Below are positions 28,112-43,799 of a stretch of 64,000 nucleotides of DNA, piece after piece; the stretch's first letter is position 1, and every line of letters starts with the position of its first letter. The translations under genes were made by a program, and so were the position numbers. Under the pieces are notes generated by a model, which searched no databases, was not told the origin of the DNA, and worked only from the letters and a program-made list of their open reading frames with translations. Source of the DNA: an uncultured Candidatus Saccharibacteria bacterium (GTDB taxonomy: Bacteria; Patescibacteriota; Minisyncoccia; Phycocordibacterales; UBA918); NCBI GenBank assembly GCA_964493145.1, contig CAZBMV010000002.1, forward strand, positions 14,157-78,156, given 5' to 3'.

Positions 28112-28831
28112 ATGCTGATCAAACCGATCAAAACATCACTTTTCAATATCAATGATGATCTATTTTTATTCATCACAAAATATATTAAAAAATTTAACGA
28201 GTATGACATACTCGTTATAACATCAAAAATTGTTGCCCTCTCTCAGGGGTGCGTGATTCCACACGATTCGTATACCAAGTATATGAATACCGTCTCAGCC
28301 CATTCAGTGAAGACGCCATGGGCGATACTCACGCTCACGAGTGAAGGGTGGTGTATTAATGCAGGTGTCGATGAATCTAACGTACGGAATGGCTACGTTA
28401 CACTGCCTGAAAACCCTTTTGAATATGCTCACATCCTGAGGAAGCGACTTAGGAAAAAATACGGTCTTAAAAATCTCGGTGTCATTATCACCGACACTCG
28501 AAGTGTCCCGCTTCGAGCCGGAACCGTTGGTCGCGCTATCGGCTGTGCCGGTTTTCATCCCCTCAAAAGCTACATTGGTAAAAAAGATTTGTTTGGGCGA
28601 AAGAGCAGAGTGACGGTGAGCAATAATGCCGACGCACTCGCGACCGGTGCGGTCTTCGTCATGGGCGAGGGAAGTGAGCAAACACCACTTGCGGTCATAC
28701 AAAATGCCCCGGTGAGATTCACTCAAAAAAAATTACCGAAAAAGGAAACACGCCTCTTTCTTCTCCCACGCGAAGATATTTTCACGTACCTATACAGAGC
28801 GCCTCGGAAATACCTCAAAGACACTCCATGA
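28112..28831 (+). CDS. CofE-like gamma-glutamyl ligase family protein (F420-0:gamma-glutamyl ligase fold)
   Basis: ILVITSKIVA…NAGVDESN…GVIITDT pattern and a length consistent with the F420_ligase family. Assigned by motif recall only. Confidence 0.5.
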   Translation: MLIKPIKTSLFNINDDLFLFITKYIKKFNEYDILVITSKIVALSQGCVIPHDSYTKYMNTVSAHSVKTPWAILTLTSEGWCINAGVDESNVRNGYVTLPENPFEYAHILRKRLRKKYGLKNLGVIITDTRSVPLRAGTVGRAIGCAGFHPLKSYIGKKDLFGRKSRVTVSNNADALATGAVFVMGEGSEQTPLAVIQNAPVRFTQKKLPKKETRLFLLPREDIFTYLYRAPRKYLKDTP

Positions 28832-29245
28832 GGAAATGTTGGTGTCGTACACTATCGTATAATCAACCGGCTCGTCCCACGATTGCCGTGTGAGAGTCTC
28901 TTTATCCTTAAACGATTCGGACGTTGCAACCCCGATGCGCACCCACTCCTTTGGAATAAGGGAAAGGAATCTGTCATACCACCCACCGCCACGTCCGTGG
29001 CGGGTGCCGTAAATATCAAAAGCCGTACCTGGTAGGAAGACACACACATTTTTCTTGTGTCCGAGTATTGCAGTGCACGTCTTCACCCACGTAACAACAT
29101 CCGCCTTCGCATCACATGGGATGACCAGCGTATCTTCTATATGTGTTATCGGAGTGTACTGGAGCGGATCAATCTCATCAAAATGTGGTGTGTACAAAAT
29201 TACACCCGTACACAATGCGAGTTCAGGAATATCAGCGCGAAGCAT
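28790..29245 (-). CDS. 5-formyltetrahydrofolate cyclo-ligase family protein
   Basis: LPGTAFDIYGTRHGRGGGWYDRFL matches the conserved 5-FCL motif. Confidence 0.65.
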   Translation of the reverse strand: MLRADIPELALCTGVILYTPHFDEIDPLQYTPITHIEDTLVIPCDAKADVVTWVKTCTAILGHKKNVCVFLPGTAFDIYGTRHGRGGGWYDRFLSLIPKEWVRIGVATSESFKDKETLTRQSWDEPVDYTIVYDTNISSWSVFEVFPRRSV

Positions 29246-29302
29246 GAGGATACTATACAAAAAAATGCCATGGGTGGGAACCCACGGCATTCACCGGTAC
29301 AC

Positions 29303-30313
29303 CTAGGAATCAAGGCTTTTGAGTATCTTGGTGTACAACGCTTCAACAATCGCTTGTTGCTCCTTGCCACTACGCGCGTAATGATCGAGGCCGGGTGCCG
29401 CGTTAATTTCGAGGACCCAGTACTTCTTTGGCTCCATGGAAATATCACCATGGATCATGAGGTCGACCCCGCAAAGCCGAAGCCCCATGTCACGCGTAAG
29501 CGATATGGCAATATCACGAAACGCGCGATGTACCACACTCGTCACATCGACTGATTCGCCACCGGAGGAAAGGTTCGCATTATCGAGAAGAAACACTTGC
29601 TCTCCTTTCAAAATGACACTCTCGGGAGAGTAGCCACTTCGCGCGAGCTTTTCTTTGATGCGCGAATCATCAAACGCAATCTGTGTATCGCGCTTTGCCC
29701 GAGCGAACTCTTGTTGCTTCTTGAGGAGAAGCTCGCGTACCGTCATCTTTCCGTCACCCGTGACAGAGAGCGGGATACGCTCGTACGCAGAAATAATTTT
29801 TCCATCGAGAACCACAATGCGATAATCCTTCCCGGATACCGGCTTTTGCACGAGCACAATACGATCATCCTTGAATGCCGCTCTCATCGCTTTATAGAAT
29901 CCTTGCTTCGTGTGGACAAGTACCACACCTTTTCCCTGGCTCCCGCTGTTGGGTTTCACGATGACCGGAAAGCCGAGTTGTTGCGCATGCCTGTACGCAG
30001 CATCAATTCCTCGATTGGTAACACCGATAACCTTTCCCCAATCATCTCGGAAAAACGTTTTGCTTCCGGGAACAACAGGGTACCCCATGCGTGCCATAAA
30101 GAAATTCGCGTAATCCTTATCCTTCGCGATATCAGCGGCACCAACAGGATTGAGGTCAAGTGAATTGTACCTAAAGTACGACCGTTTGCCGCTCTTGAAG
30201 GTGATTTGCCCGGCAATGCGCCACACAGGCTCAAGGAGAACCCTTGCACCAATCTGCAGTGCCACCTTTTGAAGTACCTTTCCAAGTACAAGTGATTCGT
30301 GTTTCTTTTTCAT
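29303..30313 (-). CDS. RimK-family ATP-grasp alpha-L-glutamate ligase-like protein
   Basis: PVIVKPNSGSQGKGV and …CGVDLMIHGD…WVLEINAAPGL are ATP-grasp RimK/CofF/MptN-type motifs. Confidence 0.7.
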   Translation of the reverse strand: MKKKHESLVLGKVLQKVALQIGARVLLEPVWRIAGQITFKSGKRSYFRYNSLDLNPVGAADIAKDKDYANFFMARMGYPVVPGSKTFFRDDWGKVIGVTNRGIDAAYRHAQQLGFPVIVKPNSGSQGKGVVLVHTKQGFYKAMRAAFKDDRIVLVQKPVSGKDYRIVVLDGKIISAYERIPLSVTGDGKMTVRELLLKKQQEFARAKRDTQIAFDDSRIKEKLARSGYSPESVILKGEQVFLLDNANLSSGGESVDVTSVVHRAFRDIAISLTRDMGLRLCGVDLMIHGDISMEPKKYWVLEINAAPGLDHYARSGKEQQAIVEALYTKILKSLDS

Positions 30314-30493: not shown

Positions 30494-31096
30494 ATGTGCA
30501 GCCAAAAAGGTGTGGCTGCCACGTTTGCAGCCTTCGCAGTACGTGTCACCCGCGTCTGGAATGCCTTCTTCGGTATCCAGTCGCACGACAGTAACACGAA
30601 AGCCGGCTACAAAGTCGGCAAGATAATAGCCCAGCGCGTCATCTACACAATGGCGGACTACTGGCTCATGGCTTTGTCTGCGGCATTTATCATTGTCGTG
30701 GACAAAGCACTCGGCTACGAGTGGTTCGGCCTATTCATGGCGATGTGGGGATTTGACATCGTCGTTGCGTGCGCCTTTGTTGCAATCTGGACACGCACGG
30801 GAGAGGACGTCACGCTCGGCGAGAGTTATCGCCGAGCGGCAGATGCCATTCATGCAGAGTCCCGCATTGCGGGATACCTTGCAATGGCAGGTGTCTGCAT
30901 CAAAGCGTCGTTCTGGGATGGTCCGGAGCATATTGTCATCTTCTTTCACAAGGAGATTGGCAATGAGGGACGAATGCTTGCTGTTCTCCTCGCGCTCACG
31001 GCAATTCAGGCGGCAATCTGGACTCCTGTCTACGTACTGGGGTTTGATACCGCCTCAGAACTCTTCACGCACATTATGAACACGTACGTGAGGTGA
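30494..31096 (+). CDS. Integral membrane protein (about 5 TM)
   Basis: Strong RBS (AGGAGGTG) 6 nt upstream, a TATAAT-like -10, and a 10-bp hairpin in the leader. Confidence 0.45.
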   Translation: MCSQKGVAATFAAFAVRVTRVWNAFFGIQSHDSNTKAGYKVGKIIAQRVIYTMADYWLMALSAAFIIVVDKALGYEWFGLFMAMWGFDIVVACAFVAIWTRTGEDVTLGESYRRAADAIHAESRIAGYLAMAGVCIKASFWDGPEHIVIFFHKEIGNEGRMLAVLLALTAIQAAIWTPVYVLGFDTASELFTHIMNTYVR

Positions 31097-31126
31097 CGGC
31101 CGACGCAGAGTTACATACTCGCCGAC

Positions 31127-31156
31127 CCACGGTCGGCGAGTTTTTTATTCCCACGC
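31127..31156 (+). terminator. Rho-independent terminator
   Basis: CTCGCCGACC-CACG-GTCGGCGAG hairpin followed by TTTTTTATT. Confidence 0.6.
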
Positions 31157-31216: not shown

Positions 31217-31990
31217 ATGAACACCGCAAAATTTTTTACCAATCCAAACGACGCCGTCGCCGAGATTCAGCGCCGACGAAACGACACCGATCTGCGACAA
31301 CGAGTCGCCGATTTTTTGAATGGTGACATTCCCGAGCACTTCAGCGGCGACACTCCCATTCTCTACCTCGCACGCCACGTGGTAACACCGAGCCATGAGA
31401 CGCTCAAGTTCATTGAGAAGGCACAGCCACTCGGTCTCCCCATCGTGCTTGGACAAGATGTAAAAGATAAATTCGTTTCAAATAACTCAATGAAACGCAC
31501 CCTTGGCAAAATGCCTGTCGTGAAGGGCATCTCACGAAACACCGACGAAATTATTGAGCATTTCACCGTGATTGATTTTGACGACGCACAAGGAAAACCC
31601 TTTTGCGAAATTATGACAAAAAACAACGGGAGTCTCGTTGAGTTACACACATCACTCCTGAGGGAAATTTATCCAACCGGAATTACCATTGTAGATGAAT
31701 CGGAGTGGATAGACAGAAATGGACGTGGAAACATTCTAGAACACTACAAAAGATTTCTCACACTCTTCCTCGCACACGGTATTATGTATGAAACGTACAT
31801 TCTTGAGGATCACTACTTCGTAAAGCAGGTACTTGAGCCGGCGGTCGCCTTTGTGGAAGAAACGTTTGGGTACAAACCCCTCATCTGCGAACTCATACCA
31901 AATAGGGATATCGGAGAACGCAACTGGGACGCCTACCCGAGCGTTCTCTATGCCCGTATTAAGAACATGCTCACGGGTGACAAGAAATAG
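31217..31990 (+). CDS. Unknown-function protein, paralog A of a three-member family in this window
   Basis: It aligns with the ORFs at 35613 and 36397 in several conserved blocks, e.g. LAHGIMYETY / VAHGVLFETF / VAHGVAFENL and VEPA…FG.KPLI. This copy has native (~50%) GC. Confidence 0.5.
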   Translation: MNTAKFFTNPNDAVAEIQRRRNDTDLRQRVADFLNGDIPEHFSGDTPILYLARHVVTPSHETLKFIEKAQPLGLPIVLGQDVKDKFVSNNSMKRTLGKMPVVKGISRNTDEIIEHFTVIDFDDAQGKPFCEIMTKNNGSLVELHTSLLREIYPTGITIVDESEWIDRNGRGNILEHYKRFLTLFLAHGIMYETYILEDHYFVKQVLEPAVAFVEETFGYKPLICELIPNRDIGERNWDAYPSVLYARIKNMLTGDKK

Positions 31991-32054
31991 ACTGGATTTG
32001 ATCCCGTGCATAAACAATAAAACAGATGGGGTGTGGGTGCTATAATTTACGTAC

Positions 32055-32594
32055 ATGGTAGATGGGAAGTCAAAGATGCTTTTTTGGGTGATGGCGATGC
32101 TCATCGTACTTTCGGTGTCGGCATCGTACTACCGTTTTATGGTGCTCCATGATTACGTCGTGGAGGCGCAAATTGACTGCGACCCGACATTTGAAAGCTG
32201 TTTCGTCTGGGAATGTGACCCGAGCATAGAAGGCGAGTGTACCGGAAATGAAGAAGAAGATACATGGTATTACAAGATTGCACATCGTAACGCGAAGAAC
32301 ATTACCGGTTGCGAAGATGGTGACACGACCTGTCAATTCACCTGTCCGAGTGATGGGGAAGAAGAGTGTGATGAGATACTTTGTTCTGATGAAGCACTTG
32401 CAACATACGACGTTTTGAATACGTGTACAAATCCTGATGATTTTCAGGATGAGACTCTTGAGGAAACAGAAGATGAGGAAGTGGTAAATGAGGAGGAATT
32501 AGTAGATGACACAGAATCATCTGATGAACAGATTGCAGACGATACAATCTCCACAACAGGCGACACCGTTGAAGCAGACAAGGAAATAGAATAA
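32055..32594 (+). CDS. Membrane-anchored cysteine-rich protein with an acidic C-terminal tail
   Basis: N-terminal TM helix, then 12 Cys in about 90 aa (CDP…C…C…CEDGDTTCQFTCPSDGEEECDEILC), then a D/E-rich tail. Confidence 0.45.
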   Translation: MVDGKSKMLFWVMAMLIVLSVSASYYRFMVLHDYVVEAQIDCDPTFESCFVWECDPSIEGECTGNEEEDTWYYKIAHRNAKNITGCEDGDTTCQFTCPSDGEEECDEILCSDEALATYDVLNTCTNPDDFQDETLEETEDEEVVNEEELVDDTESSDEQIADDTISTTGDTVEADKEIE

Positions 32595-32780
32595 AAAATG
32601 TAGATGGTTAGCGGTGTGTGGGGGCGGTTGTCGTAATGATGCAATCATTGCAAGTAAAAATATTAATGGAGCATCCGAGAGGTTTTGTCAAAAGGAGTTT
32701 TTAGACATCCGGTCCGCAGGCACTAGTATGTCGTTGCTTTATAGGGGTTATCTTTGTGCTTTTCATATAACTATTCACCA

Positions 32781-33305
32781 CTACTTAACAATACTGAAAT
32801 GGTGGACATTGATTCTCTTTCCGTTTTTTACACGCGCTGACACAAAAAGCCCGTCTTGTGTAAAACCAACTTTCTCCAAAGCTTTCATCATGGGAATATT
32901 TCCTTCTTCAACCTCTGCACCAATACTGAAAATACCCAGATGTTCAAATGCGTAATGCGCTACAGCATTTATTACTTCTGTCGCAACACCTTTACCCCAA
33001 TAATTTTTGTCGCCAACAACAATGCCTAAATTTGCCACTCCGTGATACTCATTAAATTCGGTGAGAGCGACTGTTCCTATTGTTATCCCGTCAATTGTTT
33101 CAATTGACCAGTAGAAACCCTCTTCATCATTCTCACATTCATTGATGTACTCATATTGTGTCGTGATGTCCTGGGTTACACTTCGTGGTTCTGGCATAAA
33201 CGCTTGTACTTCTGGATCGGTGTCCCATTTCTGCCACAGCTCAACATCGCCCATTTTGAACGGACGGATATTATAATGTTCAGATGTGATTTTCGGTGAT
33301 TTCAT
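32781..33305 (-). CDS. GNAT-family N-acetyltransferase (RimJ/RimL-like)
   Basis: GNAT fold motifs (…IGTVAL…HGVANLGIVVGDKNYWGKGVATE…). Confidence 0.8.
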   Translation of the reverse strand: MKSPKITSEHYNIRPFKMGDVELWQKWDTDPEVQAFMPEPRSVTQDITTQYEYINECENDEEGFYWSIETIDGITIGTVALTEFNEYHGVANLGIVVGDKNYWGKGVATEVINAVAHYAFEHLGIFSIGAEVEEGNIPMMKALEKVGFTQDGLFVSARVKNGKRINVHHFSIVK

Positions 33306-33529
33306 ACAACATCTAGTGTATCAAGAATCCCGGATTTTGTTGAACTCATAGATTCTGTTTAATGTCTCGTATTGCAAATCCTGTTTTTCATCCTATCTCA
33401 CATGCTAGAATGCTCGCATAATTTTACATAGTATGGAAAACAACACTGAACAATATTGGTCGATGCTGGGGAACAAATTGATCTATATATACGAATGATA
33501 CATTCGCAAAAATAATGGCTGACCCCATC

Positions 33530-34465
33530 TCACGGTCGTACATCTGTCCGGTCCAAGATTTTGAACCCTTCTATAACCGCTTCACAAAGAAAGTCCTCAA
33601 GCTGACTCTGGTCCCCTTTTGTCTGTGCCTTATACAGATACGTATAATACAGTTGTTTTTGTTCCTGACGGATAATAGCCGGAGCAATATTTGCGTTAAG
33701 CAGCATAGCGTTCATGAGTAATCGACCAACTCGACCATTACCATCTCCGAATGGATGAATTTGTTCGAACCTACTATGAACATCAGCAGATACGCCAATG
33801 ATGTCCGCAGTCTTTTCATGTATTCTGGTTATTACTTCCGTGATTAATTTAGTGATACTCATATAATTCGCAGTTGCTAAATGAACACCGGTTATTCTGA
33901 CCCCGTGATTTCTATATACACCCGCGTCCGAACGGACACCATTCATGAGAATGCTGTGAAGTTTAAGAACGAGAGCTTCATCGATTATTTTCTTTTGAGC
34001 GATATAATCAAATAAATAATTTAGAGCCGTCTGATGATTTTTTGCCTCCAATTGTTCAGAAAGGCTCTTACTCGGTAACGCAACATTATCAAAAAGGATA
34101 GCCGCTGTATCTCCCTCGGTAAGAGTACTGCCCTCGATACTGTTACTGTGGTATGTGAGCTTCAAAATGAATTGGTCACGAACATCGGGATTATCTAAAA
34201 TCTCATCTATCACACTTGAATATTCATTTGACTTTTTCTGAATAGCTTGTTTTTTTGCCACCAGAAAGTCGGCTGAGATTACCTTCTGTCCGGTAACTTC
34301 TAAAAAAAGTTCGTCTATCAATGCTCGCATTTTTGCTCGCGGGTGAGATTTCTCTGTCCACCAGCTATTAAACGTGACGAAAGACACACCAAACCTTTCT
34401 GCTAATTTGGTTTGGGTTAACCCCAACATTTTTTTAATTATCTCTAGTTTTTGGCGTGTATTCAT
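33530..34465 (-). CDS. Fic-family protein with an N-terminal HTH
   Basis: HPFGDGNGRVGRLL is the canonical Fic motif. The N-terminus has an XRE-like HTH (LTQTKLAERFGVSFVTF). Confidence 0.85.
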   Translation of the reverse strand: MNTRQKLEIIKKMLGLTQTKLAERFGVSFVTFNSWWTEKSHPRAKMRALIDELFLEVTGQKVISADFLVAKKQAIQKKSNEYSSVIDEILDNPDVRDQFILKLTYHSNSIEGSTLTEGDTAAILFDNVALPSKSLSEQLEAKNHQTALNYLFDYIAQKKIIDEALVLKLHSILMNGVRSDAGVYRNHGVRITGVHLATANYMSITKLITEVITRIHEKTADIIGVSADVHSRFEQIHPFGDGNGRVGRLLMNAMLLNANIAPAIIRQEQKQLYYTYLYKAQTKGDQSQLEDFLCEAVIEGFKILDRTDVRP

Positions 34466-34509
34466 ATACGTTTAGATGCGAGTAGTAGTAGATATCAGTC
34501 ATGTTATCA

Positions 34510-34551
34510 AACTTTATAAAGTTAGTCAAAATGTCTAAACCTTATAAAGTT
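34510..34551. promoter_or_regulatory. Two copies of a 14-bp palindrome between the divergent Fic and HExxH genes (putative operator)
   Basis: AACTTTATAAAGTT (a perfect palindrome, 34510-34523) and AACCTTATAAAGTT (34538-34551), centres 28 bp apart. Confidence 0.5.
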
Positions 34552-34610
34552 ACAATAACGCTGATGGTGAAGAAATATTGTCCTGTTTATTCTATAATCT
34601 ATATACAATT

Positions 34611-35363
34611 ATGTACCCACAACATCTTCCCACATATATTCATACTTTTCTTGACTATCCCGACTGGAGAGCCGTCGAATCTGCACACTATATATTTAAC
34701 TACACAAATGGGAGTGAAGCAGAAAGGGAAATCCAACATATCATTCACACACAAGAGGAAGGCTTCACAAGAATACTTAATGTTCTTAAAATTGTACCTC
34801 CCACAAAGAAGATTACATACTACTTTTATCCCAATGAACAGCTCAAAATGCAGCTTATGGGTGATGATTGGTATGCCCAGTCTATTTATAATGAATTCTG
34901 TGTTCATGTGCTATATACATCTGAACACAAACCAATAGGACCACATGAAGATACGCATCTTCTGAGTCTACCGTGGGGTCTTTCGTGGTGCTTCCTCCAG
35001 GAAGGACTTGCGGAACATATAGTTGGACACTCGTGGGACAAATGCTCTCATATTGAGAAGATGAAGGAGGGTATTGCAAAAGGAATCAACCTTTATCCTT
35101 CAACCCAACTTTCAGACGAGGATTGGCTGAATACATCGGACGATGGTGCGATATATTACTATGCACTCGCTGGTTCATGGGCAACGTTTTTGATTGAGCA
35201 GTATGGGCTTGAATGTTTTAAGAATCTGTATACCAACACTCACAATACAATGTCGCGAAGTATGATTGAATCAGCATATATGAAATATTATGGTGTGTCA
35301 CTTGAGAATCTTGAAAGACAGTATTTCCAGAAAATTTTGGGTTCGAGAAGAACTTCTGAATAA
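34611..35363 (+). CDS. HExxH-motif protein, putative zincin-like metallopeptidase
   Basis: GPHEDTHLL plus a downstream Glu (…QEGLAEH…). The start is uncertain: TTG at 34578 or ATG at 34611. Confidence 0.4.
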   Translation: MYPQHLPTYIHTFLDYPDWRAVESAHYIFNYTNGSEAEREIQHIIHTQEEGFTRILNVLKIVPPTKKITYYFYPNEQLKMQLMGDDWYAQSIYNEFCVHVLYTSEHKPIGPHEDTHLLSLPWGLSWCFLQEGLAEHIVGHSWDKCSHIEKMKEGIAKGINLYPSTQLSDEDWLNTSDDGAIYYYALAGSWATFLIEQYGLECFKNLYTNTHNTMSRSMIESAYMKYYGVSLENLERQYFQKILGSRRTSE

Positions 35364-35612
35364 AAATGCAATAAATGTTCTCACGGACGAAAAAATCAGA
35401 AACATCATTGAGAGTTCAGAGATGCAAAAGTTAAATTGGCGCATGAAATTCCCACTTAGGACTATGGAGAAATATTCCATTCCACCAAAAAATGAACGTC
35501 CCACCGTCGTAACCCCTTAAATGCACTGAAGCCCTCTATACTTTAGGACAAATTATGACATTCACACACAGCGGGTAAAAGCGTCGTGTTGTGGTTATGG
35601 GTGTGGTAAAAT

Positions 35613-36404
35613 ATGAGTACGTGTATGGAAAATATCTATTTGTCGCTGGATGAAGCTCGTGAAAAATTGAGAGAGCGGTGGAATGATGTTGAACTCAAAA
35701 GCAAAATTGAAAATGAATTAGGGGATAAATTTATCCAGCAATACTCAAGTGGTCCCCTTGGTATCACCACGCGACAAATAATATCCGCCGACAACGGTTG
35801 TTCTTTTTTAGACTACGCCGCTCATTACATTGGTGCTAAACCATGTGCACAAGAATTTTATGGTGATAAATTCGTTCATTTTAACGAAGAAAAGAAGGGT
35901 CTTGGCAGACTCAGAATCACGCTTAATACTGGAGAGTATGCAACGATTGATTGTATGGATTTCCACGCTTGTGAAAAAAAGAAGTTGATTGACTGTCAAC
36001 TTAAATCAGGCGAATCTCTTGTTGAGTTTCATCATGAACTTCTTGCAATAGACAATATAGGCATTGAGTATTTTGATAATACAAATTGGTACCATTCAAT
36101 CGGTCATGCGACAGATTATTATTATTACATGCTACTACATTTTGTCGCGCACGGTGTTCTCTTTGAGACATTTTATGACGAAGGAGGAACGACAGAGGAT
36201 GAGTTTACACACAATGTGGTATACCCAACGATTAACAGAATCCACGAAAAATTTGGTTTGATGCCAATGCTTATCAGAGCATACCCTGAGCACCAAAGTG
36301 ACGAAGAGGATTTTTACTGGTGGAATCACAGTAATAATGTCAACAAATGCATTATTGAATATGCATTAAAAAATAATCTTGAAATCAAAAAAGTATATGT
36401 ATGA
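35613..36404 (+). CDS. Unknown-function protein, paralog B of the three-member family
   Basis: AT-rich (~38% GC). It aligns with paralogs A and C. Conserved blocks include KKGLGRLRI and the His-rich segments FHHEL and HFVAHG. Confidence 0.5.
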   Translation: MSTCMENIYLSLDEAREKLRERWNDVELKSKIENELGDKFIQQYSSGPLGITTRQIISADNGCSFLDYAAHYIGAKPCAQEFYGDKFVHFNEEKKGLGRLRITLNTGEYATIDCMDFHACEKKKLIDCQLKSGESLVEFHHELLAIDNIGIEYFDNTNWYHSIGHATDYYYYMLLHFVAHGVLFETFYDEGGTTEDEFTHNVVYPTINRIHEKFGLMPMLIRAYPEHQSDEEDFYWWNHSNNVNKCIIEYALKNNLEIKKVYV

Positions 36405-37155
36405 AATATCTAACATTCATCTATCCCTTGATGATGTGCGGACCCAATTAAATCACAGGTGGAATAACGTTGATTTGAGAAAACAAATTGAAGACGAGCT
36501 CGGCGAGTATTTTATGCCGCAGTTTAAAAGTGTACCTCGTACAGTTTCTTTTAGACAAATATGTACTCCAGATCATGGGTTTTTCTTTTTTAATTATGCC
36601 TCCAAATATGTGGGGGCACAGCCACTCGTTCTTGAATACCATGATGATTTATTTGTATCACTAAATGAGGAGAAGAAGGGACTTGGTCGGCTTCGTATCG
36701 TAAATGAGAATGGTGCATGCACAACACTTGATATATTGGACTTTCATGAAAATGAAAGGAAAAAACTTTCAGAGTGCAAAACAAAGCAGGGTGTTAATCT
36801 TGTAGATTTTCATCATGAGCTTTTTAAGGTTTCAAATACTGAGATTGAACTTTTAGATAACTCAAAATGGTTTAAGGCGCAGGGTTCTGCATCTGACTAT
36901 TACTACAATTTGTACCTACACTACGTCGCTCATGGTGTTGCGTTTGAAAATTTATTTGATGAGACGGAAAGTGGAATAAATTTTCTTAATAATATTGTTG
37001 AACCAGCCATTGAACGAATTTATTCTAAATACAATCTCAAACCTCTCATTGCTAGACAGTACCCAACTAATCAAAACGATGCCGAAGATTTCTACTGGTG
37101 GTCCTATCCATCACGTATAAATGATTATATAATTAAAATGAGTCCAGCAAATTAA
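36397..37155 (+). CDS. Unknown-function protein, paralog C of the three-member family
   Basis: Its ATG overlaps the stop of paralog B by 8 nt. It ends 1 nt before the histidine kinase start. Confidence 0.5.
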   Translation: MYEISNIHLSLDDVRTQLNHRWNNVDLRKQIEDELGEYFMPQFKSVPRTVSFRQICTPDHGFFFFNYASKYVGAQPLVLEYHDDLFVSLNEEKKGLGRLRIVNENGACTTLDILDFHENERKKLSECKTKQGVNLVDFHHELFKVSNTEIELLDNSKWFKAQGSASDYYYNLYLHYVAHGVAFENLFDETESGINFLNNIVEPAIERIYSKYNLKPLIARQYPTNQNDAEDFYWWSYPSRINDYIIKMSPAN

Positions 37156-37156
37156 A

Positions 37157-38839
37157 ATGATATGCACTGATATACCACCTCCTGAATATTTAATTTTTTC
37201 GGACACTGTTCCGCAATTGCTTTATTATTCACATATACCTACCGCAATAATAACCTTATTCATTGGGCTTTTTGTTTTTTTGAAAAGTAAAAATTTATTA
37301 AGTGCATTACTTCTTTTAATCTCGTCTACCTTTACAATATGGCTCTTTATTAACCTTCTCAGTTGGACTAGCGTAAACGGTGACTTGATAATGTTCAACT
37401 CTTCACTCTTTGGTATCTTAAACATTGTTCTATTTTTTTCATTTTTATATTTTTATATATTTTATATTAGGAGGTGTGACGTTCACTATTTTTATAAAAT
37501 ATTATTATCACTTTTGCTTTTACCAGTTATTTTATTTAGTCAATATAATTTTTCTGTTTTTAACCTTACTTACTGTGAAGTATTTGATACTGTCGGTGTC
37601 TATTCGGACTATATTTACATACTTGAACTACTTGTATTTATTACCATATTACTATTTGGAGGATATAGTTATATACGTTCCAAGGAGGAGTTGAGAGAAC
37701 AAATTTTACTTATTACTTTTGGTGTAGGATCATTTTTATTTTTGTTTTTTACAACTGGATACTTTGCGAGCTACTTAAATGAAATGGGGTTCAATAACGC
37801 ATTTGAGATTGAGCAGTACGGTCTTTTTGGTATGACATTTTTTATCGGTGTGCTCTCATACCTCATCGTGAAGTTCCACGCCTTTAATATCAAACTTGCG
37901 GCGGCACAGGCGCTCGTCGTTGCGCTTATCTTTATTACCGGATCCGAACTCTTCTTCGTTGAGTCACTCACCAACTACATCCTCGTCAGTATTACGCTCA
38001 TCTTCTCCATCATTGGTGGATACTTCCTCGTGCGAAGTGTAAAGAGAGAAATAGCCCAGCGTGAAGAAATTGCACAACTCGCGGATACACTGGCGAAGGC
38101 GAATGAGCGATTGAAGATTTTGGACAAAATGAAGTCGGAGTTTGTCTCCATTGCATCGCACCAGCTCCGAAGCCCGCTCACCTCTATTCGCGGCTACGCG
38201 TCTATGCTTGCAGAAGGATCGTATGGGAAACTACCTGAGAAAGCGCAGGAAGTTGCAAGCAGTATTGCCGAGTCAAGCAAATTTATGGCAATGTCTATTG
38301 AGGACTACCTCAATGTCTCGCGCATTGAAGCGGGGAACATGAAGTACGAGATGAGCGACTTTAGCTTAAAAGATGTTGCCGGAAAGGTTGTGGACGAATT
38401 GCGACCAACCGCCATGAAGAAGGGTCTTGTCATGGTCTTCCGTTCTGATTGCACCACGCAGGGTACCATTCACGCCGACATAGGAAAGACGCGCCAGATC
38501 ATCATGAACCTCGTGGACAACTCCATGAAGTACACGCCAAAGGGTACCGTGACGGTCATCGCGCACGACGACGTGAAAAAGAAGAAGATGTACGTCACGA
38601 TTCAAGACACCGGCATTGGCATGAGCAAGGAAACGCTAGAAGAGGTCTTTGATAAGTTCGTGAGGGCAAAGAACGCCAACAGCGTAAACGTCACCGGCAC
38701 CGGTCTCGGCCTTTTTGTCGCAAAGAAAATGGTTACCGAAATGAAAGGTAAGGTCTGGGCCGAGTCTGAAGGAGAAGGCAAGGGCTCACGGTTCATTGTG
38801 GAGTTTCCACTGATTTCTGGGGATGCGAGTGGGAAGTAA
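37157..38839 (+). CDS. Sensor histidine kinase with a multi-TM N-terminal domain; no response regulator nearby
   Basis: HisKA H-box (SIASHQLRSPLTSIRGY) and HATPase_c N/G boxes (NLVDNSMKYT, GTGLGLFVAKKMV). The N-terminus has about 7-8 hydrophobic helices, partly encoded by a very AT-rich low-complexity stretch. Confidence 0.8.
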   Translation: MICTDIPPPEYLIFSDTVPQLLYYSHIPTAIITLFIGLFVFLKSKNLLSALLLLISSTFTIWLFINLLSWTSVNGDLIMFNSSLFGILNIVLFFSFLYFYIFYIRRCDVHYFYKILLSLLLLPVILFSQYNFSVFNLTYCEVFDTVGVYSDYIYILELLVFITILLFGGYSYIRSKEELREQILLITFGVGSFLFLFFTTGYFASYLNEMGFNNAFEIEQYGLFGMTFFIGVLSYLIVKFHAFNIKLAAAQALVVALIFITGSELFFVESLTNYILVSITLIFSIIGGYFLVRSVKREIAQREEIAQLADTLAKANERLKILDKMKSEFVSIASHQLRSPLTSIRGYASMLAEGSYGKLPEKAQEVASSIAESSKFMAMSIEDYLNVSRIEAGNMKYEMSDFSLKDVAGKVVDELRPTAMKKGLVMVFRSDCTTQGTIHADIGKTRQIIMNLVDNSMKYTPKGTVTVIAHDDVKKKKMYVTIQDTGIGMSKETLEEVFDKFVRAKNANSVNVTGTGLGLFVAKKMVTEMKGKVWAESEGEGKGSRFIVEFPLISGDASGK

Positions 38840-38851
38840 TTTTTTATGTAA

Positions 38852-39244
38852 GAAAAACAGTTTGACGAATGGAATAATGTTAAGAAGAAAATTGATTCTC
38901 ACATTCACAAGCCACCGCTATTTAAAGAACGTGAAATTTGGTGGTGCTCATTTGGTGTAAATGTTGGGTCAGAAGTGTGTGGCAAAAATGTATTTTTTCG
39001 TAGACCAGTTTTGGTTCTCAAAAAACTTTCTCAAACTTCGTTTATAGGAGTACCCCTATCAACAAAGAAGACTGAGGGTACGTGGTATATCGAAATTACT
39101 CACAGTGACGGTATGAAAAATACCGTAAACGTTGCACAGGTACGTTACGTTGATTACAGAAGACTTGATAAGAAGATTGGAACGCTTGATTCAATTGATT
39201 TTGAAAAGGTCAAAAACCAATTGAAAATAGTACTGGGTATATAA
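38852..39244 (+). CDS. MazF/PemK-family endoribonuclease toxin homolog with no canonical start (possible pseudogene)
   Basis: The in-frame region encodes …EREIWWCSFG…RRPVLVL…VPLST…LDSIDFEKVKNQLKIVLGI, which matches PemK/MazF. An ATG at 38846 is followed at once by TAA. The first in-frame canonical start is GTG 38975, which would delete beta-strand 1. Confidence 0.5.
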   Translation, partial: EKQFDEWNNVKKKIDSHIHKPPLFKEREIWWCSFGVNVGSEVCGKNVFFRRPVLVLKKLSQTSFIGVPLSTKKTEGTWYIEITHSDGMKNTVNVAQVRYVDYRRLDKKIGTLDSIDFEKVKNQLKIVLGI

Positions 39245-39437
39245 CATAAATCCCCACCCTTTCGGGCGGGGGACGTGGCTAATGCCAAATGTACGTATAT
39301 TGTATACAGGTAAAGTTGTGTTGTCAATCGAAACTGAGTAACTAATTGCAGAATGAGTATTCCATGGTATTATGTTGATGTGCTTGTGGGGCGTCAGCCC
39401 TATTCGGCTAATACATAAGCTGAAGGCAAGCATATTA

Positions 39438-39468
39438 AAAAATACCACCCTCGGGTGGTATTTTTTAA
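39438..39468. terminator. Bidirectional terminator hairpin
   Basis: ATACCACC-CTCG-GGTGGTAT perfect stem flanked by A-run and T-run, between convergent genes. Confidence 0.6.
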
Positions 39469-39944
39469 TCCTCATCCGGATTACCTTTCATAGTGGATAC
39501 AAATTTGATATCTCTATATTTATTTGTTGTCCATGCAGGCACAACGCTCCAAAAATGTAGCAGTCCATTATCCCCAATTTTTCTCAAGATTACTTTTATT
39601 TTTCTATTACCCATAATCGCAATGATTCCCCAGTACTGTATACGTTTTGCTTTCACAACCTTTGATTTCCTTTCTTTCACTACAAATTCTTTCAACATCT
39701 CTTCATACTCTTGGTGTGTAGTTGAGAGCGCAACGAGTTCAATCACTCGTGGCAAAAGTTTAAAGCGCATTACTTGCGAAGCACGATCACGTTCGTGTCT
39801 CGAATTCTTAAATATAATATGATTGAAACCTTCAGCATTGAAATATACAAGCTCATTCATAACAGGTGAAAACACCGGCTTTTGCAAAACATAAAAGGTG
39901 TGTGAATCCGCTTTTAATTTTTCATAATTTAAAAGATCATCCAT
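39465..39944 (-). CDS. Hypothetical protein (159 aa)
   Basis: ORF with a hairpin terminator downstream. No motif recognised. Confidence 0.4.
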   Translation of the reverse strand: MDDLLNYEKLKADSHTFYVLQKPVFSPVMNELVYFNAEGFNHIIFKNSRHERDRASQVMRFKLLPRVIELVALSTTHQEYEEMLKEFVVKERKSKVVKAKRIQYWGIIAIMGNRKIKVILRKIGDNGLLHFWSVVPAWTTNKYRDIKFVSTMKGNPDED

Positions 39945-39990
39945 GCAAAAAATTATATCATTTCAATGCACAAGTCCTTAACTTGCCTGA

Positions 39991-40185
39991 ATGAGGACAG
40001 GTGATGGTGATTATAAAATGCTTGTCGATTTTCTTATTGAGGAAAATCGGTTTGAAAAAGTATTGTTTCCAAATAGAAAATTTGCATCTTCATTGTATAA
40101 GCAGATTTCACACATTTATTTTGATGACTTAAGCAAAACGGAACTTCGCACCAAAATTGGGAAAAGAAAAGGGGGCCTTAGGTAA
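39991..40185 (+). CDS. Small hypothetical protein (64 aa)
   Basis: ORF followed by a GGGGCC…GGCCCC hairpin plus T-run. Confidence 0.3.
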   Translation: MRTGDGDYKMLVDFLIEENRFEKVLFPNRKFASSLYKQISHIYFDDLSKTELRTKIGKRKGGLR

Positions 40186-40318
40186 TTAACCGTTCGGGCC
40201 CCTTTTCGTCGTGATGTATATATACTAGCAAGATGTTTTTAAAAGTCAACCGTATGCATAAAATAGTATTGGTGATATAACGTAACTGCCCACTCGTCTT
40301 AAGACCGGTGGTCGGTTA

Positions 40319-40918
40319 TTGCTTGAATTATTAAAAATGAAAATTTCTTGGAAAAAATATTTTGAGGTGCGGTGTGCAAAAAATGAACGTGAACTTCTCA
40401 CGGAAGCGCTTCCGTATGTCACGTGTCGAGGTATTGCACTTGATCTTGGCGCCGGTTCAATGAATGACTCAAAGTACCTACTCACACAAAATTTTAAACA
40501 CGTTATTGCAATGGATAGTGACGATGAGGCAGCGATATATGCGCATGAGATTACATCAGATCGTTTTGAATTTGTTAAAGAAACATTTCACAATTTTTTC
40601 TTTCAGGAAAACCTTTATGACCTGATAAACGCACAATATGCACTTCCGTTTATTCCACAGAATGATTTTGATACGCTCATTCCTAGGGTTGTACTGAGTC
40701 TCAAGTCAGGAGGTGTATTTTGCGGACAATTATTTGGTGTTTGCGATTCATGGAATGTGGAAGGGCACGAAATGTCTTTTCATACAGAAAATGAGATTCG
40801 AAATATTTTCAAAAATTTCAAAATTATTAAACTCCTTGAGGACAAAAAGGATGGCTTGACTGCGCTCGGGAAGGAGAAACACTGGCACATTTTTCACATT
40901 ATTGCGGTCAAGATGTAG
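40319..40918 (+). CDS. Class I SAM-dependent methyltransferase (TehB-like size)
   Basis: Motif I (ALDLGAGSMNDS), acidic motif II (IAMDSD) and a motif-III-like LKSGGVF. Confidence 0.7.
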   Translation: MLELLKMKISWKKYFEVRCAKNERELLTEALPYVTCRGIALDLGAGSMNDSKYLLTQNFKHVIAMDSDDEAAIYAHEITSDRFEFVKETFHNFFFQENLYDLINAQYALPFIPQNDFDTLIPRVVLSLKSGGVFCGQLFGVCDSWNVEGHEMSFHTENEIRNIFKNFKIIKLLEDKKDGLTALGKEKHWHIFHIIAVKM

Positions 40919-41013
40919 GTGTCACTCCTTCAGCAACATTAAAAATATAAAGCATGCCTCAAGGTTCAATGTGGGTTTCCACTTCTTCTAAACATTGCAA
41001 GTGCGAACTGATA

Positions 41014-42042
41014 TCAAAACGTCGCAAAAATACGCTTCTCGCTTGAATCAATTCTCACGACTCCTCCGTAGGGCATTGGAATTTGCGGGTCAGTGTGACC
41101 GAAGTCAAGATTCTGTATAACCGGAATTTCAGTATTGTACTTTCTGACCGTTTTGAGAATTGTATCGCGTTGTCCTTGCCGGTACGCAATTTTTTCTTCA
41201 TCAGAGTGTGGCTTGTTGTATTCCCACGCCTTTGGCCGTCCGATAAGAACGCCTTTAATCGCACTCAGTATGCCTCGCTCACCGAACGCGCGAATAACTC
41301 GCATGACGTAGTCATGGGAAGGAATTTCTTCTGACGACTCAAGCATAAGAACAATATCCTTAAATTGTTCATGTGTTGGAATCGATACACCATGACGAAA
41401 CATTTCATCAACTGATTCAATGCAACCACCCCAGAGAATGCCTTGTGCATTTTCTATACCATCCCAGTACCATCCTTCATTACCACAATGCGTCCGACGT
41501 TTGTTGGTGTTTTCAACATCATTCCAGTCAAGTCCTTGGTCATTGTATGTTGATGATGCTTTCAACTCAAATTCACCCTCATCAAACAGTGCGTGTTTAA
41601 TGTACTCAATGGTGAATGCATCCATTTCTCCTTGCATGGCAAACTGCGTAAAAAGGGAAGCACCGTAGTATGAGGGAATGCCGTTAAGAAATAAAAAGTT
41701 TTCAAAGTGAGAATTGTCACTATACCCCAGAAATGGCTTCGGGTTTTTTATAAATGGATCAACAGGAAGATTTTTTACATATGTAACTTGATCATCGCCA
41801 CCGAGTGATGCAATCACTCCTCTGATTGCAGAGTTTTCAAACGCACTGATAAGGTCTCGCGTACGTTCCTCAGTAGACGCACCGACTAATTTTGTGGTAG
41901 GAAACTCAATCGGCTCAAGCTCAAATACTTCACGAACCCTTTTCAATCCGAGTTCATACATATGTGGCCATACGCCTGGCGCCGCAAAAGATGGAGAGAG
42001 AATGGCAATCTTATCTCCTTTTTTTAATTTTGATAATTTCAT
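41014..42042 (-). CDS. S66-family peptidase (LD-carboxypeptidase / MccF-like)
   Basis: GDKIAILSPS N-terminus, GYSDNSHF nucleophile-region motif and an overall length of ~340 aa. Confidence 0.65.
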   Translation of the reverse strand: MKLSKLKKGDKIAILSPSFAAPGVWPHMYELGLKRVREVFELEPIEFPTTKLVGASTEERTRDLISAFENSAIRGVIASLGGDDQVTYVKNLPVDPFIKNPKPFLGYSDNSHFENFLFLNGIPSYYGASLFTQFAMQGEMDAFTIEYIKHALFDEGEFELKASSTYNDQGLDWNDVENTNKRRTHCGNEGWYWDGIENAQGILWGGCIESVDEMFRHGVSIPTHEQFKDIVLMLESSEEIPSHDYVMRVIRAFGERGILSAIKGVLIGRPKAWEYNKPHSDEEKIAYRQGQRDTILKTVRKYNTEIPVIQNLDFGHTDPQIPMPYGGVVRIDSSEKRIFATF

Positions 42043-42147
42043 ATTTAAAAATGATACAGTATTTGCTTTAAAAAATACAAAAATGGTCACTGAAATAAAG
42101 AACTGAATGTAAGGGGTACATTTCAGAACCTTGAGCAGTTTCAGTGA

Positions 42148-42216
42148 GCGGAGAGTGAAGGCGAAGGGAAGGGCTCACGGTTCATTGTGGAGTTTCCACT
42201 CGTGGTGGGGAAATAG
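42148..42216 (+). pseudogene. 3' remnant of a second sensor histidine kinase gene
   Basis: It encodes AESEGEGKGSRFIVEFPL…*, identical in amino acids to the C-terminus of the kinase at 38770-38811, with 32 nt identical and synonymous differences around it. A stop codon lies immediately upstream. Confidence 0.6.
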
Positions 42217-42277
42217 GACACATATTTATTCAGTAATTCAGTATTGCAGAATTACTGAATTTTGCTATACTGGTTTC

Positions 42278-42535
42278 ATGAATACAATCAAACTCAATCA
42301 ACGTGGTGTGCTCACACTCCCAAAAAATATTCGTGATACATTTGGTCTCAAGGCGGGTGAGATTCTCGTTGTTTCAAAAGAAGACAATAAAATTGTGCTT
42401 GAACGCCAGCAATCTGACAAGGAACTTCTCCGTAGTATTCAGCACTCGCTTAACGATATTAAGCACGGAAGGTTTATTGAATTCGGCTCAATTAGCGAGT
42501 TTAAGAAAAAACTAAAAGCATATGATGCGAATTAG
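42278..42535 (+). CDS. AbrB/MazE/SpoVT-type antitoxin
   Basis: MNTIKLNQRGVLTLPKNIRDTFGLKAGEILVV is a SpoVT_AbrB swapped-hairpin domain. It overlaps the downstream toxin by 14 nt. Confidence 0.65.
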   Translation: MNTIKLNQRGVLTLPKNIRDTFGLKAGEILVVSKEDNKIVLERQQSDKELLRSIQHSLNDIKHGRFIEFGSISEFKKKLKAYDAN

Positions 42536-42770
42536 AATTTCTGAAACCGCACTCAAGCAGTACAACAAACTTCCCACAGCACTCAAGCAAAAGGCAAACA
42601 AACAGTTTGAATATCTCCTCTCAGACGTTCGTCACCCTTCTCTACACGCAAAAAAGTACAAGGAGTCCGACGATCTTTGGCAGGCAAGCATTGATAAGAA
42701 TTGGCGTTTTTATTTTTTCATTGTGTCACCAGAGTACATTATCGTTTCAGTCATTAGGCATCCGAAGTAG
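42522..42770 (+). CDS. Type II toxin, RelE/ParE family
   Basis: 82 aa with …DLWQASIDKNWRFYFFIVSPEYIIVSVIRHPK, a typical RelE/ParE C-terminus. Confidence 0.7.
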   Translation: MMRIRISETALKQYNKLPTALKQKANKQFEYLLSDVRHPSLHAKKYKESDDLWQASIDKNWRFYFFIVSPEYIIVSVIRHPK

Positions 42771-43022: not shown

Positions 43023-43799
43023 GTGAGAAATATTCTCATTTCACTGATGTTCGCTCTCGTCTCCTTTGGAGCGTGTGCGAGTACCTCGTCGAACGACGTG
43101 CCGAAAGGCATGTATCCCATTACTTGGGATAGGTCGTTAGCAACCCCTCCGGCAATGACTGCGGAAGAGCTCACGAAGGCGGAGGAGGAACTTCTGCCCG
43201 AGAACGTGGGGAAGACCCACGTCGCTTATGCGAGCGACTATGGTCAGAAGTATGAGGGTGGAGCGGTGGACGAATTTCAACCCTATGCGGAGGTGCAACT
43301 GACCTACCGCAATGGAAGGAATAGCCAGCGTGACCTCTTCGGTCGTCAGGTGTATCTGGAAAATCCCCTTGGGGATTCTGGCTACTCCGTGTGGGCTTCG
43401 GCCTACAAAGATCAGGAGTTTAAGTCAGCATATGTCGGTCTTGCTCTCAAAGAGGGCAACTGGCAGTTCGGCCTCGGTCTCGGCTCCGCCTGGTACGATG
43501 ACAGAAGGAGAAATGCTATCACCCCGTGGGTGTATTATTCGTCCGCGGAATACGTTGGCCTCTTCATTGCCGAACGCTACCTGGGAGACCATGAGGATCC
43601 TTGGTTCTACAAGGGATACTTCCAGAAAAAAATTGGCTCCTTTGGAATTGGCGTCTATGGTGAAAAAGGGGCTGGTATCGGTCCGATGTTGAGTTACAAT
43701 ATCACCAAGTCGGTCAAGGTGTGGGGAGCCGCACCTGTCGCAAAGAAACCGTCCGACGGTGGATTCAGTTTTATCTTCGGACTGAATGTAGAGTTCTGA
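43023..43799 (+). CDS. Lipoprotein with a beta-barrel (outer-membrane-protein-like) sequence signature
   Basis: Signal peptide with lipobox (LVSFGAC). The body is Gly/Tyr/Trp-rich. The C-terminus FSFIFGLNVEF has alternating hydrophobic residues and a terminal Phe. GTG start. Confidence 0.5.
   Translation: MRNILISLMFALVSFGACASTSSNDVPKGMYPITWDRSLATPPAMTAEELTKAEEELLPENVGKTHVAYASDYGQKYEGGAVDEFQPYAEVQLTYRNGRNSQRDLFGRQVYLENPLGDSGYSVWASAYKDQEFKSAYVGLALKEGNWQFGLGLGSAWYDDRRRNAITPWVYYSSAEYVGLFIAERYLGDHEDPWFYKGYFQKKIGSFGIGVYGEKGAGIGPMLSYNITKSVKVWGAAPVAKKPSDGGFSFIFGLNVEF

Follow-up and report, generated by a model that had tools for sequence, protein, structure and literature searches.

The 64,000-nucleotide stretch of DNA analysed here (the window) is from contig CAZBMV010000002.1 of an uncultured Candidatus Saccharibacteria bacterium, and the subject of the analysis is a group of three open reading frames (ORFs) within it, called copies A, B and C, that a preliminary description of the sequence had brought together as a paralogous family of unknown function. 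The three ORFs are present where they had been described (Table 1), and it was found that they belong to a large and undescribed protein family. Its members are soluble cytoplasmic proteins about 260 amino acids (aa) long that occur mainly in the Candidate Phyla Radiation (CPR)/Patescibacteria, and at most of the loci compared their genes are followed by a gene for a sensor histidine kinase. In the window, A is part of the vertically inherited chromosome, and B, C and the first half of the kinase gene lie in a low-GC cassette that has replaced the DNA present in related genomes.

The relationship between the three copies was evaluated by BLASTP and with a hidden Markov model (HMM). The B and C proteins are 47% identical over 250 aa (E = 1e-90), and A aligns with B at 25% identity (E = 3e-20) and with C at 26% (E = 1e-24) over about 235 aa, almost the entire protein. 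An HMM built from a profile of 119 family members and run against all six-frame ORFs of the window gave bit scores of 408 for B, 386 for C and 194 for A, and it matched no other ORF, including those of 257 to 262 aa at 10886, 43023, 48338 and 61990. Therefore, the window contains exactly three members, of which A is the outlier, and the full-length paralogy proposed earlier is highly significant by both methods. The motifs quoted in the preliminary description were also found in the alignment: the N-terminal block beginning R-[HQ]-[VI] reads RHVVTPSH in A, RQIISADN in B and RQICTPDH in C; the HGxxFE block reads LAHGIMYETY, VAHGVLFETF and VAHGVAFENL, respectively; and FHHEL is present, among the three copies, in B and C only. 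The reported contrast in base composition was right in its direction, A being native and B and C low, and its values of about 50% and 38% were slightly high, because the GC contents are 0.470 for A, 0.369 for B and 0.356 for C. The corresponding values at third codon positions (GC3) are 0.539, 0.341 and 0.300, compared to about 0.50-0.63 for core genes of the window such as those encoding DnaK, DnaJ and tryptophanyl-tRNA synthetase (TrpRS).

B, C and the kinase gene are closely packed: the reading frames of B and C share 8 nt, and a single nucleotide separates the end of C from the ATG of the kinase gene (37157). The public annotation of B begins at the second ATG, at 35625, and gives a protein of 259 aa (P0001). 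A terminator-like hairpin at 31117-31141 on the + strand (an 11-bp stem with 8 GC pairs and a T-run) is situated between the upstream membrane-protein gene and A, which suggests that A begins its own transcript, and no comparable terminator-like site was found between B, C and the kinase gene. The kinase matched the Pfam families HisKA (E = 7e-16) and HATPase_c (E = 1e-25), and its N-terminal half has nine hydrophobic segments and no Pfam match; it is a two-component sensor histidine kinase.

Table 1. Features of the module in the window and domain fusions found in family members elsewhere.
Feature	Position or protein	Strand	Description
MP200, membrane protein	30494-31096	+	about 200 aa, polytopic; directly upstream of A
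Copy A	31217-31990	+	257 aa; divergent "A-type" family member, native to the lineage
Cys-rich, very acidic protein	32055-32594	+	N-terminal membrane anchor; recurrent kinase neighbour
Low-GC replacement cassette	32090-38088		6.0 kb; GC 0.381 (0.488 elsewhere in the window); unmatched in L007 by blastn
GNAT, RimJ/RimL-type	32781-33305	-	Pfam assignment
Fic-domain protein	33530-34465	-	Pfam assignment; weak N-terminal helix-turn-helix match
Peptidase-like ORF	34578-35363	+	261 aa; weak zincin-peptidase-like match (Pfam)
Copy B	35613-36404	+	263 aa; canonical clade; first gene of the B-C-kinase operon
Copy C	36397-37155	+	252 aa, annotated thus; canonical clade
Sensor histidine kinase	37157-38839	+	560 aa; about nine transmembrane (TM) helices, then HisKA and HATPase_c
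Family + SET fusion	P0231, P0233, P0257, P0273		matches separate SET genes beside members in several loci
GNAT + family fusion	P0144, P0192, P0237		GNAT is a homolog of the ORF that immediately precedes the member in L014
TM domain + family fusion	P0208		TM domain has a homolog in the gene that precedes the fusion in L044
Family + tyrosyl-tRNA synthetase (TyrRS) C-terminal tRNA-binding module	P0112 (L002 8001-9302)		no matching separate gene; one small cluster only

The surroundings of family genes were compared in 24 independent loci for which 2 kb or more of sequence was available downstream of the family gene. A HisKA/HATPase_c kinase gene was found downstream on the same strand in 18 of the 24, within 550 bp in 17, and an adjacent SET gene was found in 3 further loci. 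The wider surroundings vary among loci, with glycosyltransferase, Mur ligase, RNase III/NusB and aminoacyl-tRNA synthetase (aaRS) genes, and so the adjacency of the kinase is not merely that of one conserved block. This conserved link to the downstream kinase and to other partner genes supplies a functional context that the preliminary description lacked. The number of family genes per locus also differs: there are three in tandem in L001 and two in L030, and in each of L021-23 and L037 a divergent copy is accompanied by a canonical one. SET genes are found in L004, L005, L007, L015, L020, L027, L028 and L030, and in L044 the SET domain is fused to the family domain; hmmsearch found no SET-like ORF in the window, and no second kinase was found there. 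At L047 the SET position is occupied by a gene for a PrmA/PRMT-like class-I methyltransferase, a non-homologous replacement that again points to protein modification.

The neighbourhoods are mirrored by fusions (Table 1), in that SET, GNAT and TM domains are each fused to the family domain in some members and encoded by a separate neighbouring gene in other loci. One of the SET fusions, P0273 (QQS15687.1), is encoded in a complete Moranbacteria genome and is followed by a kinase gene. Comparisons of these fused domains with proteins of the window found that its GNAT is unrelated to the family-fused GNATs and that MP200 is unrelated to the TM domain of P0208. The 180-residue extension of P0112 corresponds to the whole post-catalytic part of TyrRS (the anticodon-binding helical domain and the S4-like domain; 34% identity, E = 3.5e-30); the module is 29-34% identical to genuine TyrRS, and a normal TyrRS gene is located 2.5 kb upstream in L002. 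A search with the P0112 extension alone found no additional fusion of this kind, and this fusion was therefore down-weighted.

Two further neighbours recur. Homologs of MP200 are encoded beside family genes in L034, L015, L020, L026, L014, L021-23 and L047 (at least seven independent loci, some of them without a kinase), although the gene is absent from the equivalent position in L007; no Pfam family matches MP200, and annotation is lacking for all 40 of its database homologs (55-76% identity). Genes homologous to the Cys-rich gene overlap the start of the kinase gene in L007 and lie between the family member and the kinase in L033, L026, L029, L042, L044 and L047; in L007, L033, L026 and L047 the homolog directly precedes the kinase gene or overlaps it. 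This protein, which also has no Pfam match, may be an extracytoplasmic co-sensor.

The extent of the family was determined by an exhaustive HMM search of 1.84 billion representative sequences, in which 835 clusters at 50% identity were matched with E ≤ 1e-3 and 699 with E ≤ 1e-10. A word-indexed search returned 340 homologs, every one of them annotated as "hypothetical." In species-representative genomes the family is found mostly in CPR/Patescibacteria (Moranbacteria, Parcubacteria/Paceibacteria, Shapirobacteria and Saccharibacteria), and a minority of members come from metagenome-assembled genomes (MAGs), in many cases from short contigs, that are assigned to other groups, among them Nitrospirota, Bdellovibrionales and Desulfuromonadales. 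No TM segment was found in the family proteins, and the isoelectric point (pI) is 5.1-5.8 for A, B and C, with a family median of 6.4. Among 114 diverse members, R21 and P216 (C numbering throughout) are invariant, and Y8, L27, F65, D84, N90, K93, F138, H139, Y169, F196, P203, G213 and W234 are at least 90% conserved, K93 being situated in an NEEKKGLGR loop. The divergent A protein retains the family-wide positions, in its own numbering R20, D84, N90, K93, H144, Y177, P208, P221 and W237. The conserved R, D, N, K, H and Y residues make it plausible that these proteins are enzymes, as had been suggested from the sequence of the three copies.

The description of the family as one of unknown function also held. 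Searches of Pfam, NCBIfam, PADLOC and PHROGs with A, B and C gave no match below E = 0.01, no Pfam family was matched by more than 2 of the 114 diverse members scanned singly at E ≤ 1, and PDB sequence searches with profiles of 3, 119 and 114 sequences gave no match; a known domain was likewise not found by Foldseek, as detailed below. The sole PADLOC match to a known anti-phage defence protein was to Csn2, over 35 residues of C (E = 0.012) and with no CRISPR context. No description of the family, of its kinase, SET and GNAT associations or of its fold was found in the papers that were searched.

AlphaFold2 was used to predict the structures of two copies. The models of C (predicted local distance difference test, pLDDT, 95.5; predicted template modelling score, pTM, 0.90) and A (pLDDT 92.8, pTM 0.90) have the same order of helices and strands, forming a Rossmann-like alpha/beta/alpha domain preceded by a helical hairpin. 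These two models were compared to PDB and BFVD in three Foldseek searches, and the sub-threshold matches, which were consistent in all three, were mostly to ATP-using adenylating alpha/beta domains. They included TyrRS and TrpRS, pantothenate synthetase (PanC), cytidylyltransferases and the adenylyltransferases NadD and PPAT, and further the PP-loop proteins TtuA, NcsA, QueC, GMPS and NAD synthetase, the E1 adenylation domain of Atg7/UBA5 and the photolyase N-domain. Together with the conserved polar residues kept in A and the strong selective constraint on A described below, these matches are suggestive of nucleotide binding.

The history of the locus was evaluated by comparing the window with two related genomes, L007 (the sister) and the more distant L047. 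The window is colinear with L007 at 80-84% DNA identity (blastn) except for two segments, the low-GC cassette of Table 1 and a second one at 38812-42156. The cassette contains most of the Cys-rich gene, the GNAT, Fic and peptidase-like ORFs (GC3 0.36-0.37), B, C and the part of the kinase gene encoding the sensor half, and no integrase or transposase gene is present in it. Copy A is located in the colinear block, which L047 shares as well; its ortholog in L007 is 88% identical, with a ratio of nonsynonymous to synonymous substitution rates (dN/dS) of 0.052, and its ortholog in L047 is 59.8% identical. The synonymous divergence (dS) of A from its L007 ortholog is 1.43, which is like that of neighbouring vertical genes (1.42-1.58). 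Therefore, A is vertically inherited and under strong purifying selection, and the dN/dS of 0.05 and the retained conserved positions rule out that it is a decaying pseudo-paralog.

Neither L007 nor L047 has a counterpart of B or C. In a bootstrap tree they grouped together in 0.5% of cases, which is incompatible with a recent tandem duplication, whereas C grouped with the kinase-adjacent third copy of L001 in 60%; the three copies of L001 were themselves never monophyletic. The nearest relatives of B were not C but members of low-GC Parcubacteria/Moranbacteria loci, and canonical-clade members typically come from genomes of 31-40% GC, in agreement with B and C. On these grounds B and C are old paralogs. 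The preliminary description had offered separate acquisition or an old duplication followed by transfer, and both ideas are supported, with A vertical and with B and C old paralogs that were imported on the cassette.

The kinase gene is a mosaic of an imported sensor half, extending to about codon 237-311, and a native catalytic half. The catalytic half is 92% identical between the window and L007, 78% between the window and L047 and 78% between L007 and L047, and the window sequence is at most 46% identical to those of distant CPR kinases. In contrast, the sensor half is only 40% identical between the window and L007, 39% between the window and L047 and 34% between L007 and L047, and that of the window is 46-48% identical to kinases encoded downstream of canonical members in distant CPR genomes. 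Along the protein, identity to the L007 kinase is 28-55% in residues 1-320 and 85-100% in residues 321-560. The GC3 of the gene rises from 0.22-0.38 to 0.55-0.80 near codon 240, and DNA similarity restarts at 37865 (codon ~237) relative to L047 and at 38089 (codon ~311) relative to L007. The low GC of the first half is not simply a matter of the amino acid composition of TM helices, because it is the third codon positions that change, and they do so where the DNA similarity to the relatives is lost.

At the left edge of the cassette, L007 still has a promoter-like region and ~35 nt from the start of a Cys-rich gene of the window type and then diverges. In L007 and L047, too, the genes at this place and the sensor half of the kinase are low in GC, and the cassettes of these two genomes end inside the same kinase gene. 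Thus, in this lineage a replaceable cassette of partner genes plus kinase sensor half is enclosed by conserved flanks, and a different cassette is present in each of the three genomes. The left flank consists of the membrane-protein gene, A and the beginning of the Cys-rich gene, and the right flank of the part of the kinase gene that encodes the catalytic core. The gene order of L047, which is membrane protein, A-type member, Cys-rich protein, methyltransferase and kinase, equals the left side of the window gene for gene, and the ancestral layout of the lineage was membrane protein, A, Cys-rich protein and kinase. These comparisons of sequence show that B, C and the new sensor half arrived as one unit from a Parcubacteria/Moranbacteria-like donor, by recombination inside the kinase gene that replaced its former sensor half.

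The interpretation that we favour, with a probability of roughly 40%, is that the family proteins are cytoplasmic and probably nucleotide-binding partners of a sensor kinase module. The family protein would be a cytoplasmic component of a lineage-typical signalling module whose core is the 9-TM kinase encoded directly downstream, with a SET or PrmA-like methyltransferase, a GNAT, the small polytopic membrane protein and the Cys-rich acidic membrane-anchored protein as optional parts. The family domain is predicted to bind a nucleotide, probably ATP, in a pocket formed by the conserved Arg, Asp, Asn, Lys, His and Tyr residues, and tandem paralogs such as B and C probably cooperate as distinct subunits. 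We are more confident of the partnership with the kinase/SET module than of the binding of ATP.

Several results weigh against this interpretation. Regarding the module, adjacency of genes is no proof of physical or functional interaction, 3 of the 24 loci (all in MAGs labelled non-CPR) have neither a kinase nor a SET gene, and no receiver domain or response regulator was found in the window. The sequence is moreover a contig from a metagenome assembly, and the cassette junctions were read from that assembly. Regarding the ATP-binding part, Foldseek found no solved or viral structure at E ≤ 1e-3, the best E-values being 5e-3 to 1e-2 and the template modelling (TM-) scores at most 0.36. The ATP-binding reading therefore depends on the kind of weak match obtained, which any alpha/beta/alpha protein might partly give. 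The top matches of the C model were to LmbE-type deacetylases, which are not ATP-binding (diacetylchitobiose deacetylases, BC1534 and LnmX); these were also non-significant (probability 0.5-0.6, E ≥ 4.8e-3, TM-score 0.27-0.30, root-mean-square deviation 7-13 Å), they did not recur with the A model, and the His of LmbE/PIG-L zinc motif 1 and the HxxH motif are both absent from the alignments. Known nucleotide-binding signatures are absent from the family alignments as well: there is no HxGH or KMSKS motif, the first core strand being followed by S-P-D-N-G (P-N-x-E in the wider family), and no SGGxDS PP-loop motif at the first strand-helix junction. An hhalign comparison to the catalytic domains of the class-I aaRSs TyrRS, TrpRS and ArgRS, with shallow templates, gave probabilities of less than 1%, equal to those of unrelated controls, and a derived class-I aaRS domain was kept only as a weak structural hint. 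Identity with a receiver domain was rejected: PF00072 was not matched, no CheY-like structure was among the top 50 Foldseek matches, and hhalign against a receiver alignment gave 0.2%.

The fusion in P0112 raises the alternative that the family is an autonomous RNA- or tRNA-directed enzyme, such as a very derived class-I-aaRS-like or PP-loop-like adenylating enzyme with tRNA or aminoacyl-tRNA as its target, and that its adjacency to the kinase reflects CPR gene order and no common function. In P0112 the family domain is located exactly where the TyrRS Rossmann domain would be, before the TyrRS-C module; TyrRS and TrpRS are recurrent among the weak fold matches; and aaRS genes (ArgRS, TyrRS, HisRS-type, AspRS and TrpRS) are near the module in L001, L002, L004, L007, L046 and the window. 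We nevertheless consider this alternative unlikely. The fusion is limited to one small cluster, represented by one of the 150 best representatives, and it is nested in the canonical clade and therefore secondary; the extension search added none. The acidity of the proteins does not suggest direct RNA binding, hhalign found no link to class-I aaRSs with the shallow templates available, and the kinase adjacency is kept in L005, L042 and L044 without nearby aaRS genes. The alternative also leaves the SET, GNAT and TM fusions and the co-transfer of the sensor half unexplained. Lower still in probability, in our judgment, is a non-catalytic role as scaffold, adaptor or substrate of modification, in which K93 or D84 would be methylated, acetylated or phosphorylated by the SET protein, the GNAT or the kinase, or in which the domain would recruit those enzymes to a common target. 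Such a role is consistent with the fusion to, or adjacency of, lysine-modifying enzymes of three unrelated folds (SET, GNAT and PrmA-like methyltransferase), with the GNAT gene and the gene for a Fic (AMPylating) protein in the window cassette, with the high conservation of the Lys and the Asp across diverse members and with the lack of a cognate response regulator near the kinase in the window. However, a cluster of six conserved polar residues is more typical of an active site or ligand pocket than of one site of modification, no receiver-domain or HAD-like phospho-acceptor folds were returned by the fold searches, response regulators are encoded 3-6 kb downstream in L001, L002 and L044, and the GNAT and Fic genes of the window are encoded on the other strand and are of kinds that mobile islands commonly carry.

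The latter point also bears on whether B and C are themselves only cargo of a mobile or defence island (toxin-antitoxin or anti-phage, with Fic and GNAT) and unconnected with signalling. They do lie in a low-GC, horizontally acquired segment with Fic, GNAT and peptidase-like genes, and related genomes contain toxin-antitoxin-like genes (RHH, MazE, Phd) in the same region. This explanation is nonetheless very improbable: PADLOC and PHROGs gave no meaningful match, the cassette is without an integrase or transposase, its end is a point of in-frame recombination within the kinase gene instead of an attachment site, and the family holds its chromosomal place beside the kinase across many CPR lineages, with A clearly vertical. 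Equally slight is the chance that the contrast in composition is an assembly chimera of two CPR populations joined in conserved sequence. The contig (95,873 bp) is derived from a metagenome, and one junction is in a conserved gene, where assemblers can cross over; but the kinase gene is intact and in frame, and its product of 560 aa has the same length as in L007. Donor-type catalytic halves are at most 46% identical in protein sequence and thus provide no long identical k-mers to mislead an assembler, and the independently assembled L007 and L047 have different low-GC cassettes ending inside the same gene.

The sensor kinase partner reading can be compared with several known systems. The closest structural class is that of the HUP, PP-loop and E1-like ATP-binding Rossmann domains, a group taken here to include the class-I aaRS catalytic domain, cytidylyl- and adenylyltransferases, PanC, PP-loop ATP pyrophosphatases, E1-like adenylation domains and the universal stress proteins (USP). 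These share with the family a three-layer alpha/beta/alpha architecture and a similar size, they were the recurrent best non-significant Foldseek matches, and P0112 bears the TyrRS tRNA-binding C-terminal module in the TyrRS position; USP domains are furthermore associated with sensor kinases (KdpD), as the family is. The family differs from them in having none of the HxGH/KMSKS, SGGxDS or USP ATP-binding motifs and no Pfam or PDB sequence similarity, and the structural matches were limited to E ≥ 5e-3 and TM-scores ≤ 0.36. The closest functional analogy is to the accessory proteins of intramembrane-sensing kinases, such as LiaF with LiaS, BceAB with BceS and YycH/YycI with WalK. In both cases the accessory gene is in the same operon, and the family gene is immediately upstream of a multi-TM kinase without an obvious extracytoplasmic sensor domain, an arrangement that suggests, by analogy, that the kinase would receive its input via partner proteins. 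Those accessories are membrane or extracytoplasmic proteins unrelated in sequence, whereas the family proteins are soluble and cytoplasmic, often occur as 2-3 paralogs and are also fused to SET or GNAT domains. LmbE/PIG-L deacetylases gave the top matches of the C model, and in the canonical clade the first core strand is followed by "SPDNG," at the place of the LmbE motif "AHPDD"; a deacetylase would pair naturally with a GNAT. However, "SPDNG" is not conserved in the wider family, where the consensus is "PNxE" and A has "PSHE." Finally, CPR-enriched protein families of unknown function have been catalogued in comparative studies of CPR proteomes, and the present family resembles these in being strongly CPR-biased with members that are all "hypothetical."

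Much of bacterial diversity belongs to the CPR/Patescibacteria, which have very small genomes and depend on other microbes, and a large part of their proteome is without an assigned function. In this setting, a "hypothetical protein" is raised to a defined family with a confidently predicted structure that has no solved relative, conserved polar residues and a reproducible gene and domain network. The network offers partners to test, namely the sensor kinase, the SET or PrmA-like methyltransferase, the GNAT and two further uncharacterised membrane or secreted proteins, and some members are in genomes labelled Saccharibacteria, a group for which cultivation and genetics now exist. What would be new is an undescribed protein family as an accessory component of two-component signalling, and its biochemistry could prove more unusual. 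A more far-reaching version, which we hold to be doubtful, is that the family is a so far unrecognised class of Rossmann-like enzymes or ligand sensors that depend on ATP and form the cytoplasmic core of a CPR-specific signalling system. The other parts of this system would be the small polytopic membrane protein, the Cys-rich acidic protein as an exoprotein, a protein methyl- or acetyltransferase and the 9-TM kinase, and lineages would repeatedly exchange its input cassette, namely the partner genes and the sensor half of the kinase, through recombination within the kinase gene. If so, there would be a modular re-tuning of what these host-dependent bacteria sense, possibly in the recognition of host or prey. 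If the family is instead an ordinary ligand-binding accessory, the result is a useful annotation and no surprise. The mosaic kinase shows cleanly, in a natural case, how recombination can swap sensor domains; such swaps occurred independently in three related genomes, which bears on how two-component systems gain new inputs.

The second low-GC segment, 38812-42156 (3.3 kb, GC 0.386), is absent from L007 and is flanked by a 45-bp direct repeat, 95.6% identical, of the 3' end of the kinase gene (38767-38811 and 42156-42200). It contains small ORFs, a class-I methyltransferase gene at 40319-40918 with a weak match to protein N-terminal methyltransferases, and an LD-carboxypeptidase gene at 41014-42090 on the - strand; it resembles an insertion that duplicated its target, and no integrase is present. 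The methyltransferase showed no kinship to that of L047. Two toxin-antitoxin-like pairs were seen in L007: an RHH gene with an 85-aa ORF after the A ortholog (10906-11371), which is absent from the window, and a MazE gene with an 81-aa ORF after the kinase gene (15518-16010), which is present in the window at 42157-42770. With one pair absent and the other present, the flanks of the module look like insertion hotspots.

Upstream of the module, at 28112-30313, there is a cluster encoding an F420-0:gamma-glutamyl-ligase-like protein, a 5-formyltetrahydrofolate cyclo-ligase-like protein (- strand) and a RimK/D-Ala-D-Ala-ligase-like ATP-grasp protein (- strand). The cluster is conserved in L007, and ATP-grasp genes are also near the module in L002 and L048. 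Downstream, the ORF at 43023-43799 (258 aa; GC 0.526, which is native or high), which matches no Pfam family and by the HMM does not belong to the family of A, B and C, is conserved in L007 (241 aa), just upstream of the TrpRS gene.

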